Origin: Clostridia bacterium | GTDB lineage: Bacteria; Bacillota; Clostridia; TANB77; CAG-508 | Length of the DNA: 64,000 nt | Reading direction: 5' to 3' | Assembly (NCBI GenBank): GCA_016290095.1 | Contig: JAEESU010000010.1 | Span: 155,286-219,285, forward strand | Shown here: positions 40,826-43,446 of the stretch, one piece after another | How positions within the stretch are numbered: position 1 is the stretch's first letter | Layout: each line of letters opens with the position of its first letter | Notes under the pieces: model-generated | What the model was told of the DNA's origin: nothing | Databases searched by the model: none | What the model saw: only the letters and a program-made list of their open reading frames with translations | Made by a program: the position numbers and the translations under genes

Positions 40826-40862
40826 AAAAACTCTAAAAACTTTTTAGAGTTTTTATTTTTTT
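40826..40862 (+). terminator. Rho-independent terminator after tig
   Basis: Stem aaaactctaaaaa / tttttagagtttt followed by a T-run. Confidence 0.7.
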
Positions 40863-40924
40863 TCCATTTACAATTTAAAAAGTTATATATATAATTGAAA
40901 TTGATAAAAAATGGGAGAATAATT

Positions 40925-43402
40925 ATGAAAAATTTTAAAAGAATTAGTGCCTTGTTTTTGGCTATTTTAGTGCTTTTTAGCAATATGGTTTTTGCTTTTG
41001 AAGTTTCAGAAGCAATAGGTGAATTTAAATTTACAAAAGAGTTTGAAGAGTGGTTAAACTTATCAGAAGAAGAAAGAAGTAATAGAATTGAGCCAAGAGC
41101 ATATGATATTCCAAATACTAAATATGAAGTAATCAATCCTATTGCTAGGACACAAACTGTTGGAAATTCTTTGGTAAGTAGATTTTCTTTAAAAGATATT
41201 ATTTCAAATAATCTTATAATTAAGAATCAAGGAAGAAGCCAAGGATGTTGGTCTTTCGCTGCAATAGCTTCATTAGAAACAAATTTAGCATTACAAAATT
41301 ATTATAATCAAGCTAATAATAAACAATATGATTTTTCTGAAAAACATTTACTTTATTATTGTAGTAGAGCATTTAGTAATGGAGAAACAAATAAATATGG
41401 ATTTAATAGAAGTGCGGCAGATTCAGGAAATTATCAAATGTCTCATATCTATTTTGAAACACAAGCAGGACCAATTTTAGAAAGTGAAATGCCATTTACG
41501 GATGATTTTCCTACAATTAGTTTATCTAGTATTCAGAATAAGCAAGTAGCTGCAAAAATATATGACACAAAAGTTTTCCCATCATATAGCAACACAGATA
41601 GCGATATTGAAAGTGTAAAAAATGATATAAAAAATTTTGTAAAACAATATGGTGGAGTTGAAGCTGCTATTTATGGAGCAGAACTTCTTTCAGACTTTTA
41701 TAATAATGAGACTGGTGCATTATATTGTAATGATGCAAATAAATATCAGTTCAATCATGATGTTTTAATTATTGGTTGGGATGATAATTATTCAATAGAT
41801 AATTTTAGTGATAAATTAAGACCTCAAAATGATGGTGCTTGGATTATAAAAAATTCTTGGGGAGATAGAATAGAATATACATATGATGACATGAGAGAAA
41901 GTATTTTAGCAAATACTTCTCAAGATATATTAGAAACATATGGAATTAGAACAAAAGAAGATATTTCAGATTCAGTAGTTGAAAACTTTTTTACTGAAAT
42001 GGGATACAAATTAGATGGTGCAGGACATGGATATGTACCAATTGGCGATAATGGATTTATGTATGTATCATATGAAGATGCTAATATATATAAAATGATG
42101 GTAGGAATTGAAAAAGCTTCTGACATTATTGATAATGATTATATTTATCAATATGATTTTGGACCAGCTTATTATAGTTTACCTTTAAGATTTTCAGAAG
42201 TATATATTTCAAGTGAATTTGATAAACAATCAAGTGAAAAAGAATTTTTAACAGAAGTATCATTATATGCACCAGAAACATACGAATGTGAAGTCCTAGT
42301 AAATCCAAACGGAAATAGTAAAAATACTAGTGTTTTACAAAAAATAAGATTAAAAGCTGGAGATACAGAAGTTTTTGATGCAGGATATCATACAATTGAA
42401 TTTGCAGAGCCACTTGAAATAACAGGGAATTCATTTACAGTTGTAGTTCATATAAAAGGAACACGTGCAAGTGGAGTCAATTTAGCTGCTGTTGCTCCAA
42501 TTGAGAATACATTTTATGATAGAGGAGATATAATACCAAACAAGAACTTCTGGACATTAGCAGATGATTTTAATAATAATCGTGAGTGGGCTGATACATC
42601 AAAATTGAGCGAAATGACAGGTGGTAGTTTTCCAAATTGCAATCTTACAATAAAAGCATTTACTGTAAAAGAAAATAAAGTTATAGGAGGACCTGAAAAT
42701 CCTTCAATTGATGATCCAGTTGATGATCCTACTGATGACCCAGTAGATGATGTACATCCAATTACAATTATTATAAATAATGCAAAAGCAAAAGCTACAA
42801 ATGCAAAAGCATATTATTACTCTGATGCAAATACAAAAGAATATATGACAATGGATGTAAACTTAAATAATTTAACTCGTAGTAATAAAAATGACTCATC
42901 TGAATACTATTACTATTTATCAACAAATTCTAATGAGAAAAATATTGAAAATTGGATAAAGATAGATAAAAATCAAACTTCAACTTCTAGTCTTGATTTT
43001 TCAATAAATACAAACGATTTACCAAATTATTCAGACATGCTTAAAGGAAAAGACATTTATATATACATAAAAGAAGTAGTAAAAAGAAATAATGAAGAGA
43101 AAACAACAGTTTCTAATGGCATAGAATTAGTATCTAATGATCAAATTGAAGTATATAAAGATAATATAAAACAATCTACAAATGAAGTAAAAAATGAAAC
43201 AAAAGGAACTGAAGATAATAAAAATTCCGGATCTGCTACACAAGCTCAAGATAATGGTAATACAAAATCTCAAGCAGATGACACAACTTCTAAAAATAAA
43301 TTACCAAATACAGGAAAAACTATTTCAATAATTCTTATAATAGTTGTAACTGCAGGTGTTGGAATATTCGCTTATAAAAAATATAAACAAATAGATTTTT
43401 AA
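40925..43402 (+). CDS. LPXTG cell-wall-anchored papain-family (C1) cysteine protease with a long Asn/Ser/Thr-rich stalk
   Basis: Signal peptide. Catalytic motifs 'QGRSQGCWSFAAIASLE' (Cys), 'NHDVLIIGWDD' (His) and 'NSWG' (Asn). C-terminal 'LPNTG' + TM + 'KKYK' sorting signal. Confidence 0.75.
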   Translation: MKNFKRISALFLAILVLFSNMVFAFEVSEAIGEFKFTKEFEEWLNLSEEERSNRIEPRAYDIPNTKYEVINPIARTQTVGNSLVSRFSLKDIISNNLIIKNQGRSQGCWSFAAIASLETNLALQNYYNQANNKQYDFSEKHLLYYCSRAFSNGETNKYGFNRSAADSGNYQMSHIYFETQAGPILESEMPFTDDFPTISLSSIQNKQVAAKIYDTKVFPSYSNTDSDIESVKNDIKNFVKQYGGVEAAIYGAELLSDFYNNETGALYCNDANKYQFNHDVLIIGWDDNYSIDNFSDKLRPQNDGAWIIKNSWGDRIEYTYDDMRESILANTSQDILETYGIRTKEDISDSVVENFFTEMGYKLDGAGHGYVPIGDNGFMYVSYEDANIYKMMVGIEKASDIIDNDYIYQYDFGPAYYSLPLRFSEVYISSEFDKQSSEKEFLTEVSLYAPETYECEVLVNPNGNSKNTSVLQKIRLKAGDTEVFDAGYHTIEFAEPLEITGNSFTVVVHIKGTRASGVNLAAVAPIENTFYDRGDIIPNKNFWTLADDFNNNREWADTSKLSEMTGGSFPNCNLTIKAFTVKENKVIGGPENPSIDDPVDDPTDDPVDDVHPITIIINNAKAKATNAKAYYYSDANTKEYMTMDVNLNNLTRSNKNDSSEYYYYLSTNSNEKNIENWIKIDKNQTSTSSLDFSINTNDLPNYSDMLKGKDIYIYIKEVVKRNNEEKTTVSNGIELVSNDQIEVYKDNIKQSTNEVKNETKGTEDNKNSGSATQAQDNGNTKSQADDTTSKNKLPNTGKTISIILIIVVTAGVGIFAYKKYKQIDF

Positions 43403-43407
43403 AAGGA

Positions 43408-43446
43408 AAACCCCTTAAATGATTTTAAGGGGTTTGTCGTTTTTTG
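43408..43446 (+). terminator. Rho-independent terminator
   Basis: Stem aaaccccttaaa / ttaaggggttt followed by gtcgttttttg. Confidence 0.7.

Follow-up and report, generated by a model that had tools for sequence, protein, structure and literature searches.

A probable sortase-anchored, Cwp84-like cysteine protease zymogen encoded between tig and clpP in uncultured gut Clostridia

The window analyzed here, a 64,000-nucleotide stretch of DNA, carries a 2.5-kb gene between tig and clpP, and all features described below lie on its plus strand. Pfam searches confirmed the neighbors: the upstream flank is tig (39462-40805, trigger factor, with Trigger_N, FKBP_C, and Trigger_C domains), and the downstream flank (43545-45497) consists of clpP (43545-44153, CLP_protease) and clpX (44202-45497, zf-C4_ClpX and AAA_2). 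A sequence-only reading of this DNA had described the gene as interrupting an otherwise contiguous tig-clpP-clpX array and as having terminators on both sides, and our analysis bears out both points. An intrinsic-terminator-like hairpin 3′ of tig (40811-40869, found as inverted repeat I1 and by RNA folding) contains 19 A/U-rich pairs (-16.6 kcal/mol, z = -7.2) followed by a U run; it was missed by a consensus terminator scan because its stem has few G-C pairs. A second hairpin followed by a U run, also identified by RNA folding, lies 3′ of the protease gene (43401-43442; -19.2 kcal/mol, z = -4.8). The same reading called the tig-clpP-clpX array almost universally contiguous in Firmicutes, which is too strong, since Bacillus keeps tig and clpX together with clpP elsewhere.

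Counted from a TTG codon, the open reading frame of the protease gene spans 40895-43402. The start is likely the ATG at 40925, because a ribosome-binding site, GGGAGAA (40914-40920, read from the sequence), lies just 5′ of it and the predicted N-terminus agrees with those of the orthologues. The coding sequence then covers 40925-43402, including the stop codon, and the protein has 825 residues rather than the 826 originally given. The top-scoring site in a promoter scan, TTTACA-17-TATAAT (40867-40895), matches the consensus at 11/12 positions and is promoter-like by consensus match only. A promoter-like site for clpP itself, TTGCAA-17-TATATT (43481-43509), was found by the same kind of scan within a block conserved upstream of clpP, which is retained in five related loci (L010, L014, L017, L018, and L008) whether the protease gene is present or absent. 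No Rfam families were detected in 39000-46500. Judged from the hairpins on both sides, the promoter-like site, the ribosome-binding site, and clpP's own promoter block, the protease gene is a predicted monocistronic, independent transcription unit. These features bear on the idea that the position reflects functional coupling, with an exported protease co-regulated with the proteostasis genes tig, clpP, and clpX. The position is indeed kept in several sub-clades and the four genes share one orientation, but we regard such coupling as highly improbable given the strong hairpins and separate promoter-like site, the conservation of the clpP promoter block with or without the protease gene, the dispensability of the gene in sister species, and the presence of family members at unrelated loci in other organisms.

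An AlphaFold model of the protein (pLDDT 84.4, pTM 0.82), combined with profile searches, resolves it into a series of modules. Residues 1-27 (40925-41005) form a putative signal peptide, read by eye, which begins MKNFKR, shows the typical n/h/c pattern with a hydrophobic core, ends at a predicted VFA/FE cleavage site, and is conserved among the orthologues. It is followed by a propeptide (residues ~28-95, 41006-41209, end approximate) that is homologous to the propeptide of Cwp84 by profile alignment to PDB entry 4ci7, and by a papain-family (C1) catalytic domain (residues ~96-390, 41210-42094) delimited by Pfam, Cwp84 alignments, and Foldseek. Within the latter lies a family-specific helical insert of ~58 residues (316-372, 41870-42040), modeled with helices at 320-358. 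The next module is a Cwp84-type lectin-like β-sandwich (residues ~391-585, 42095-42679), supported by Foldseek matches to Cwp84 and by Pfam Lectin_like (PF18560; 50.3 bits against a cut-off of 27, E = 4.1e-13, profile positions 1-156 of 156); this score was obtained when residues 390-585 were scanned alone, and the family was not listed by the whole-protein Pfam scan.

An acidic, Pro-rich linker, PENPSIDDPVDDPTDDPVDD (42680-42751), connects the lectin-like domain to the C-terminal half; it has pLDDT below 50 at residues 588-607, and in alignments it sits where relatives have one or two Big_3 domains. Beyond it is an Ig-like β-sandwich (residues ~610-752, 42752-43180; domain model pLDDT 90.9) that is conserved in the orthologues and in relatives at other loci: Pfam gave no match above cut-off for this domain and only a sub-threshold match to DUF3242, and Foldseek searches of the PDB returned only generic Ig-like matches with E>1e-3. 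A low-complexity stalk rich in Asn, Thr, Ser, Lys, and Asp (residues 753-792, 43181-43300; pLDDT 26-42), which varies in length among orthologues and would span the wall, leads into the sorting signal (43301-43399). The long Asn/Ser/Thr-rich stalk proposed from the sequence thus shrinks considerably, as most of that region is folded into the lectin-like and Ig-like domains; predicted disorder is limited to ~45 residues (753-799), where the stalk does persist, and to the ~20-residue linker.

The protease domain belongs to the C1 papain family, as had been proposed. Peptidase_C1 (PF00112) matched residues 99-315 with 58.2 bits against a cut-off of 20.7 (E = 1.6e-15), and the catalytic motifs quoted earlier are all present in the sequence, as GCWSFA (Cys108, codon 41246-41248), NHDVLIIGWDD (His278, 41756-41758), and KNSWG (Asn310, 41852-41854). 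Among solved structures, Cwp84 is the closest relative, with E values of about 1e-23 in the sequence search and 4e-34 in the profile search. In both sequence and profile alignments, Gln102, Cys108, and His278 align with Gln110, the C116A position, and His262 of Cwp84, so that the catalytic Cys and His fall where a C1 protease should have them. The roles of the Cwp84 active-site residues and the biology of its propeptide have been described (PMC4089489). When 40 family members were combined into a profile, its alignment to 4ci7 began at chain residue 9 (profile position 30) and ran through the propeptide. In papain, Asn175 of the N-S-W-G motif orients the catalytic His, and by analogy Asn310 probably plays the same role here.

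The structural comparison agrees with the sequence alignments. Foldseek matched the model to Cwp84 structures 4ci7 and 4d59 with E values of 1e-26 to 1e-24 over 512-574 alignment columns, with TM scores of 0.83-0.85 (normalized to Cwp84) across the propeptide, protease, and lectin-like domains. Cathepsins, actinidin, ficin, and papain were also matched (E 1e-10 to 1e-7). Papain and cathepsins L and K share the catalytic fold and residues with the window protein (E about 1e-9, TM 0.7-0.78 normalized to the target), whereas these eukaryotic, lysosomal or secreted enzymes have an I29-type propeptide and lack both a lectin-like domain and a wall anchor. A SpeB-like identity, offered by the sequence-only reading as one option, was considered and rejected: although SpeB (streptopain, family C10, Streptococcus pyogenes) is likewise a secreted Gram-positive cysteine protease zymogen of clan CA, it belongs to a different family, and the protease region matched C1 and no other Pfam family, C10 included. 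Streptopain was also absent from the sequence and profile matches and from the best 50 fold matches listed. SpeB is moreover not known to be LPXTG-anchored.

Cwp84 of Clostridioides difficile (PDB 4ci7, 4d59/4d5a; MEROPS C1A) is a cysteine protease of the cell surface whose substrate is SlpA, the S-layer precursor. The window protein shares with it, behind a putative signal peptide, a propeptide, a cathepsin-L-like C1 domain, and a PF18560 lectin-like domain in the same order, as well as the aligned Gln/Cys/His active site and the fold, even though the structural alignment gives only about 19-21% identity. The two differ in their attachment, with an LPXTG-type sortase signal here in place of the three CWB2 repeats of Cwp84; a Pfam scan found no CWB2 (PF04122) match in the window protein. 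They also differ in the ~58-residue helical insert after the NSWG motif, which characterizes the window protein's sub-family and is lacking in Cwp84, in the extra Ig-like domain and disordered stalk, and in the canonical Asn of NSWG, where Cwp84 has SSWG. The helical insert and the lack of CWB2 repeats suggest that specificity and regulation may differ from those of Cwp84.

Conservation across the family points to a functional enzyme. Gln102, Cys108, Trp109, His278, Asn310, Ser311, and Gly313 are invariant in 40 diverse family members with ~40% overall identity, and the pattern Q-x5-CWxF is kept in 118 of 120 homologues; the protein is predicted to be proteolytically active. The same observations weigh against a protein that acts mainly as an adhesin or lectin, with the protease fold retained as a pseudo-enzyme scaffold. 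Adhesins typically carry lectin-like and Ig-like domains (relatives of the window protein have Big_3), and the protein evolves fast. However, besides the invariant active site and its surrounding motifs, dN/dS is below 1 and the propeptide is conserved, which makes sense only for a zymogen; a pseudo-enzyme is accordingly an unlikely explanation of this protein.

The C-terminus carries the sortase signal reported by the sequence-only reading, with LPNTG at residues 793-797 (43301-43315) followed by a hydrophobic helix, KTISIILIIVVTAGVGIFAY, and a basic KKYKQIDF tail. An LPXTG-like signal is present in 117 of the 120 closest homologues, and the orthologues conserve the signal, in some cases in variant form (LPKTG or LPAAG, for example). 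The anchor model NF053819 reached 22.1 bits, below its cut-off of 47, and Gram_pos_anchor was not reported in the Pfam scan; with no LPXTG-anchor HMM at cut-off, the assignment rests on the motif and its conservation. Export and covalent attachment to the wall are thus predicted from these signals. The sortase gene noted earlier at 28867 is also confirmed: it spans 28867-29442, matches Pfam Sortase (E = 1.2e-23) and NCBIfam TIGR01076 (41.2 against a cut-off of 39.35), and encodes a candidate anchoring enzyme, with every class-specific sortase model far below its cut-off. It lies 12 kb away from the protease gene. Another sortase substrate is encoded nearby, a small LPYAG protein at 20072-20479.

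We compared the tig-clpP interval among related genomes to place the gene in time. The tig-C1-clpP order is found at L001/2, L004/5, L011, L012, L015, L016, L021, L022, L023, and L052, and in L019 and L009 it is cut by a contig end or a mobile-element insertion. Nine representative genomes carry in-site orthologues, as do three other metagenome lineages; together they cover four sub-clades of a genus-level group centered on Candidatus Scatovivens, made up of gut Clostridia that are uncultured and low in GC. MAGs of Candidatus Scatovivens are the closest relatives with a name; a literature search on Scatovivens biology and on tig-clpP gene order returned nothing useful. The gene is not an invariable component of the clade, as it is absent from the site in eight ingroup species and in all outgroups, the latter having tig followed directly by clpP. 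In single-protein neighbor-joining trees (deep nodes of the Tig tree carry no bootstraps), the in-site genes are monophyletic relative to relatives at another locus (60/60 bootstraps), and the four sub-clades of the protease tree are those of the Tig tree.

Sequence divergence gives a consistent picture. Against L002, dS is 0.71 for the protease gene and 0.39-0.64 for the flanks; against L004, the values are 0.91 and 0.55-0.81. The protease evolves faster at the protein level, with dN/dS of 0.32-0.50 versus 0.03-0.10 for the flanking genes. GC3 is 0.105 (flanks 0.07-0.12), and the GC content of 0.277 matches that of the neighboring genes. A search around the gene for the direct or inverted repeats that would flank a mobile element turned up nothing beyond the two terminators and short repeats at chance level, and no integrase or transposase flanks it. 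Searches with blastn-short and tblastn found no protease-gene remnants in the tig-clpP gaps of protease-less species, in which the clpP promoter block was the only common element; pseudogene traces therefore cannot separate loss from primary absence.

The interval holds other cargo in three relatives, namely a type VII secretion-like EssC block (L026), a GDPD gene (L027), and mobile-element genes (L009), indicating that the site accepts insertions. This cargo, together with the absence of the gene from the eight ingroup species and all outgroups, would suit a genomic islet that recently split a tig-clpP operon by horizontal insertion. For this window that scenario is largely refuted and very unlikely, as the base composition matches the neighbors, dS to orthologues is in line with the flanks, no integrase, transposase, or flanking repeats accompany the gene, and orthologues occupy the identical site in four deep sub-clades with a tree congruent with that of Tig. 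The earlier term "inserted" is therefore apt in that the gene interrupts the array, but misleading if taken to mean a recent event. The single-protein trees instead favor a single, ancient acquisition specific to this lineage, after which the gene was kept in some descendants and not in others. Recombination through the flanks, which are highly conserved (in the closest relatives, ClpP is 97-99% and Tig 86-94% identical), may also have exchanged alleles. A more far-reaching version, in which the tig-clpP junction is a dedicated variable slot where surface or secretion cargo (the protease included) is swapped, lost, or replaced by homologous recombination between the conserved flanks, strikes us as rather doubtful. 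If it were true, the protease would be a diversifying host- or phage-facing antigen whose alleles define strain-level surface types.

Taken together, we assign a probability of roughly 80% to the joint reading that the protein is a sortase-anchored, Cwp84-like C1A cysteine protease zymogen with the locus history given here. In this model, the zymogen would be exported by the Sec pathway with removal of the 27-residue signal peptide. As in Cwp84, the propeptide (~28-95) would occupy the cleft that holds the active site and is flanked by the catalytic and lectin-like domains, and it would then be removed autocatalytically or in trans. Sortase would cut between Thr and Gly of LPNTG and join the protein to peptidoglycan, leaving the Ig-like sandwich and the ~45-residue disordered stalk to position the protease/lectin head on the outer surface of the wall, where the Gln102/Cys108/His278/Asn310 site would cleave extracellular proteins. 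Historically, the ancestor of the genus-level clade around Candidatus Scatovivens would have received a pre-existing family member between tig and clpP on one occasion, and the gene would then have been inherited vertically as an independent transcription unit, with the fast protein evolution of exposed surface proteins and with clean loss of the gene in several lineages.

The substrates are far less certain than the identity of the protein. We think that host or dietary proteins are more likely, and the cell's own surface proteins less so. Nevertheless, a Cwp84-like role in maturing the cell's own surface or S-layer precursors, rather than in cleaving external substrates, deserves to be kept in mind as a minority possibility. 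Cwp84 is the closest characterized protein by sequence, profile, and fold, the likeness extends to the propeptide and the lectin-like domain, both of which shape the substrate groove (PMC4089489), and other sortase substrates such as the LPYAG protein are encoded nearby. On the other hand, the Pfam scan found no CWB2 repeats in the protein, which sets it apart from Cwp-type S-layer assembly, and an unsystematic look through the window turned up no SlpA-like gene. Clean loss in many sister species and dN/dS of 0.3-0.5 would be unexpected for a housekeeping enzyme, and so would the tandem paralogues that relatives carry next to glycoside hydrolases and giant adhesin-like proteins. Cell-wall-anchored C1 proteases had also been linked to virulence, a reading for which we found no support, as the gene comes from gut MAGs that are uncultured and of commensal type, and as members of the family are very common.

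Apart from these substrate questions, the window protein has many full-length homologues among C1 + Lectin_like (+ Big_3) + LPXTG proteins of gut-Clostridia MAGs (P0002-P0120 and P0125-P0265 were compared), which are 36-70% identical over residues 1-585 and also share the C-terminal Ig-like domain and sorting signal. In place of the window protein's short acidic linker, many of these relatives have one or two Big_3 domains, and many lie at other loci, for example beside a GH15 gene or as tandem pairs. The family comprises 415 clusters at E<=1e-30; it is large and already known, and the window gene adds one member, making the finding real but fairly ordinary. It reveals no new mechanism and settles no open question. 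To our knowledge, studies of this protease type have been confined to Cwp84, which in C. difficile is a target for drugs and vaccines. The present analysis shows that a counterpart with a predicted sortase anchor is widespread among uncultured gut Clostridia of low GC content. Within a single genus, this fast-evolving, dispensable surface protein has been fixed at a conserved chromosomal site, and the orthologue set and matched gene-less species provide a means of asking what commensal surface proteases cut, with mucus, IgA, dietary protein, and the cell's own surface proteins as candidate targets. Homologues have appeared beside Cwp84 before, in the alignment by Bradshaw et al. 2014 that included those of Eubacterium CAG:202 and Ruminococcus bromii (PMC4089489).

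A six-frame listing of the window contains a single long ORF (40895–43402, + strand) amid three genes assigned by Pfam to trigger factor (tig, 39462–40805), ClpP (43545–44153), and ClpX (44202–45497). We take the ATG at 40925 as the probable and biologically sensible start, because a GGGAGAA ribosome-binding site lies 5 bases upstream and the N-termini of all orthologues line up there; the product is then 825 aa, not the 826 aa first counted. A hairpin with a U run lies 3′ of tig (40811–40869, fold −16.6 kcal/mol, z = −7.2), which a consensus terminator scan missed because the stem is A/U-rich, and another lies 3′ of the protease gene (43401–43442, −19.2 kcal/mol, z = −4.8). 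The top-scoring promoter-like site in the region, TTTACA-17-TATAAT (40867–40895), is just 5′ of the protease gene, and clpP has its own promoter-like site (43481–43509) within a block conserved 5′ of clpP both in relatives that have the protease gene and in those that lack it. With hairpins on both sides and a promoter-like site for each gene, the protease gene most plausibly forms a transcription unit of its own, and its functional coupling to tig or clpPX is unlikely. The ORF, its Pfam neighbors, and the two hairpins agree with the sequence-only reading, which had placed the gene between tig and clpP with a terminator on each side.

The Peptidase_C1 profile of Pfam matched residues 99–315 (58.2 bits, cut-off 20.7), and the nearest solved protein by sequence is Cwp84, a C. 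difficile surface cysteine protease (PDB 4d59, 4ci7; E about 1e-23). In the sequence alignment, GCWSFA falls on the C116A position of the crystallized Cwp84 mutant, while NHDVLIIGWDD aligns with Cwp84 LNHAVAIVGWDD, which contains His262. With a family profile of 40 sequences, the match strengthened to E = 4e-34 and the alignment ran through the propeptide. Cwp84 has an active site of Gln110, Cys116, and His262, and carries a cleavable propeptide and a lectin-like domain first described in that enzyme (PMC4089489). The window protein has Gln102, Cys108, and His278 at the corresponding positions; these residues and the NSWG-motif Asn310 are invariant across 40 family members whose overall identity is only about 40%. 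The earlier call of a papain-fold C1 protease is thereby borne out by both the profile score and the catalytic alignment; that the protein is instead a pseudo-enzyme acting as an adhesin is unlikely.

Lectin_like (PF18560) matched over its entire profile when residues 390–585 were scanned alone (50.3 bits) and was not listed when the whole 825-aa protein was scanned at E ≤ 1e-2, which may be a filter or bias-correction effect; whole-protein scanning could thus let routine annotation overlook this domain. With the family alignment as input, AlphaFold gave a confident model (pLDDT 84.4, pTM 0.82), whose best Foldseek match is Cwp84 (E 1e-26 to 1e-24; TM 0.83–0.85 normalized to Cwp84 over 512–574 columns), with an alignment spanning the propeptide, protease, and lectin-like parts, followed by cathepsins, ficin, actinidin, and papain at about 1e-9. 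Compared to Cwp84, the window protein has a helical insert of ∼58 residues (316–372) that follows NSWG and precedes the final C1-domain strands, lacks CWB2 repeats in the Pfam scan, and differs in its C-terminal half. The latter begins with an acidic/proline linker and an Ig-like sandwich (residues about 610–752; domain model pLDDT 90.9) with no specific relative in structure or Pfam searches; next come about 45 disordered residues that form a stalk, the LPNTG motif, a hydrophobic helix, and the tail KKYKQIDF. The long Asn/Ser/Thr-rich stalk initially described is mostly folded domains, as disorder in the model is restricted to residues 588–607 and 753–799.

The sortase gene reported at 28867 was confirmed (28867–29442), although all models specific to one sortase class scored far below their cut-offs. 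Among the orthologues in L015, L016, L019, L021, and L022 and the 120 closest homologues (P0001–P0120), the sorting motif differs by sub-clade, being LPxTG (x = N, H, R, or K) or LPxAG (LPAAG, LPNAG, LPKAG), with LPKAG the commonest among the 120; this variation hints that the sortases may have a position-4 specificity that is relaxed or different. The window has a second candidate substrate for sortase, a 135-aa ORF (20072–20479) whose C-terminal LPYAG precedes a hydrophobic segment and a charged tail; its match to the EF0750-type LPXTG family is sub-threshold.

The best-supported reading of the protein is a Sec-exported, wall-anchored protease zymogen. The zymogen would be exported via Sec, activated by loss of its propeptide, and joined to peptidoglycan by sortase; the Ig-like domain and stalk would keep the protease at the cell surface, where its Cys/His site would cut extracellular protein.

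We scanned the window's Tig against one genome per species and recovered 39 loci from uncultured Clostridia MAGs (Tig 63–81% identical), the named genomes among them being Candidatus Scatovivens; four further matches were distant outgroups from other phyla. Tig, protease, ClpP, and ClpX were mapped onto the loci and the outcome set on the Tig tree. Across these 39 representative genomes, tig directly joins clpP in 23, with gaps of 33–553 bp between protein matches: eight in the ingroup, defined by Tig identity of 72% or more (L007, L008, L010, L013, L014, L017, L018, L043), and the others at L025 and L029–L042. The protease gene is directly 3′ of tig in nine (L009, L011, L012, L015, L016, L019, L021, L022, L023), other cargo fills the interval in two (L026, L027), tig precedes a spoIIA-like operon with clpP not nearby in two (L024, L028), and a contig end is too near to judge in three (L006, L020, L044). 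The gene also occupies this site in the window and in metagenome contigs L001–L005 and L052. As to whether every clade member has the gene, a question raised by the sequence-only reading, the comparison places it in four ingroup sub-clades and finds it missing from eight species, including Ca. S. faecipullorum. At empty sites, the tig terminator and clpP promoter block are all that is found, and remnants of the protease gene are absent. This block (AAATGTATTGAAAAAAA...TAGTATATA; 43453–43499 in the window) is common to several species, occurring in the window and in the tig-clpP gaps of all eight ingroup loci with a direct junction. In the window it overlaps a direct repeat of 14 nt (AAAAGATATCTTTT / AAAAAATATCTTTT, copies 33 nt apart), which may be an operator and has no obvious fit to the CtsR consensus.

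The protease and Tig trees recover the same four sub-clades, and the in-site protease genes form one clade (60/60 bootstraps) that excludes full-length relatives found in other organisms beside a GH15 gene. Measured against its orthologues, the protease gene shows synonymous divergence equal to that of its neighbors (0.71 with flanks at 0.39–0.64 versus L002; 0.91 with flanks at 0.55–0.81 versus L004), its GC3 (0.105) lies among those of the flanks (0.07–0.12), and no mobile-element repeats flank it. These observations argue for one old event and vertical descent, and the most economical history, resting on single-gene trees with insecure deep nodes, is that a pre-existing family member was placed here once, anciently, and then descended vertically with at least three clean losses. 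A recent horizontal insertion is unlikely; allele exchange by recombination through the very conserved flanks is possible. The gene does interrupt an otherwise contiguous tig-clpP-clpX array, as first described; its position is old and lineage-specific, not a recent arrival.

The protease is 47–66% identical to its orthologues where Tig is 86–94% and ClpP 97–99% identical, and its dN/dS is 0.32–0.50 versus 0.03–0.10 for its neighbors, as is usual for an exposed surface protein. The gene is dispensable in sister species, its product evolves fast and has no CWB2 repeats, and relatives carry tandem paralogues next to glycoside hydrolases and giant surface proteins; on these grounds the substrates are more likely external (host or dietary), and Cwp84-style maturation of the cell's own surface proteins is less likely. 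The tandem arrangement is seen in another low-GC organism (L050, L051, 5001–11492), where two paralogues from the family (1069 and 1084 aa, carrying Big_3 domains) adjoin a GH15-like glycoside hydrolase and a >1500-aa protein with Big_2 and dockerin domains.

An exhaustive search with residues 1–590 against 1.84 billion representative proteins found 415 clusters at E ≤ 1e-30, rising to 4016 at E ≤ 1e-10, with >100 spanning the whole propeptide-protease-lectin module. Q-x5-CWxF is kept in 118 of the 120 closest proteins; 117 have an LPXTG-like signal at the C-terminus, and FPKAG or FPNTG takes its place in the remaining three. In many homologues, the position of the window protein's short linker is taken by one or two Big_3 domains. 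Homologues from gut Clostridia were already aligned in the Cwp84 structure paper (PMC4089489), and none of the papers retrieved gives an experimental description of an LPXTG-anchored member. The window protein is a member of a large known family in a lineage-specific but old position, and its original annotation was essentially right.

The tig-clpP junction behaves as a variable slot in the clade, occupied in different species by the protease gene, a GDPD gene, a type VII secretion-like block, or a mobile element, which is a modestly interesting side of the finding. In L026, the interval is filled by an 8.7-kb block (11400–19975) that includes small ORFs, a pair of near-duplicate genes (286 and 316 aa), and a 1544-aa FHA + FtsK/SpoIIIE protein whose EssC-like character suggests a type VII secretion-like system. 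The L009 orthologue (region 11801–21281) is truncated at 616 aa, inside a poly-Asn/Asp linker, and is followed by a YhcG-type nuclease, a Mob_Pre relaxase, and other mobile-element-like genes, with clpP not found in 7.6 kb downstream. L027 carries a 196-aa GDPD-family ORF (11560–12150) that aligns with the Pfam profile over its first half only and is perhaps truncated. In L024 and L028 a spoIIAA/spoIIAB/sigma-factor-like operon, its genes identified from ORF translations only, takes the place of clpP, and the tig-clpP linkage is therefore broken in that sub-clade.

Elsewhere in the window, an AMP-binding (DltA-like) gene is split across two overlapping ORFs (46525–48037), with Pfam profile positions 2–64 in 46525–46833 and 68–384 in 46748–48037; the frame shifts near a T8 run (junction near 46734–46741), and the split reflects a frameshift, a slippery tract, or an error in the assembly. 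The ORFs are followed by one gene of PLP-decarboxylase-like type and one of MBOAT type. An 872-aa ORF (20666–23284) has an N-terminus of the Wzz chain-length-determinant type joined to a P-loop domain of the ParA/CbiA type; this BY-kinase-like arrangement suggests that a surface polysaccharide locus lies upstream.
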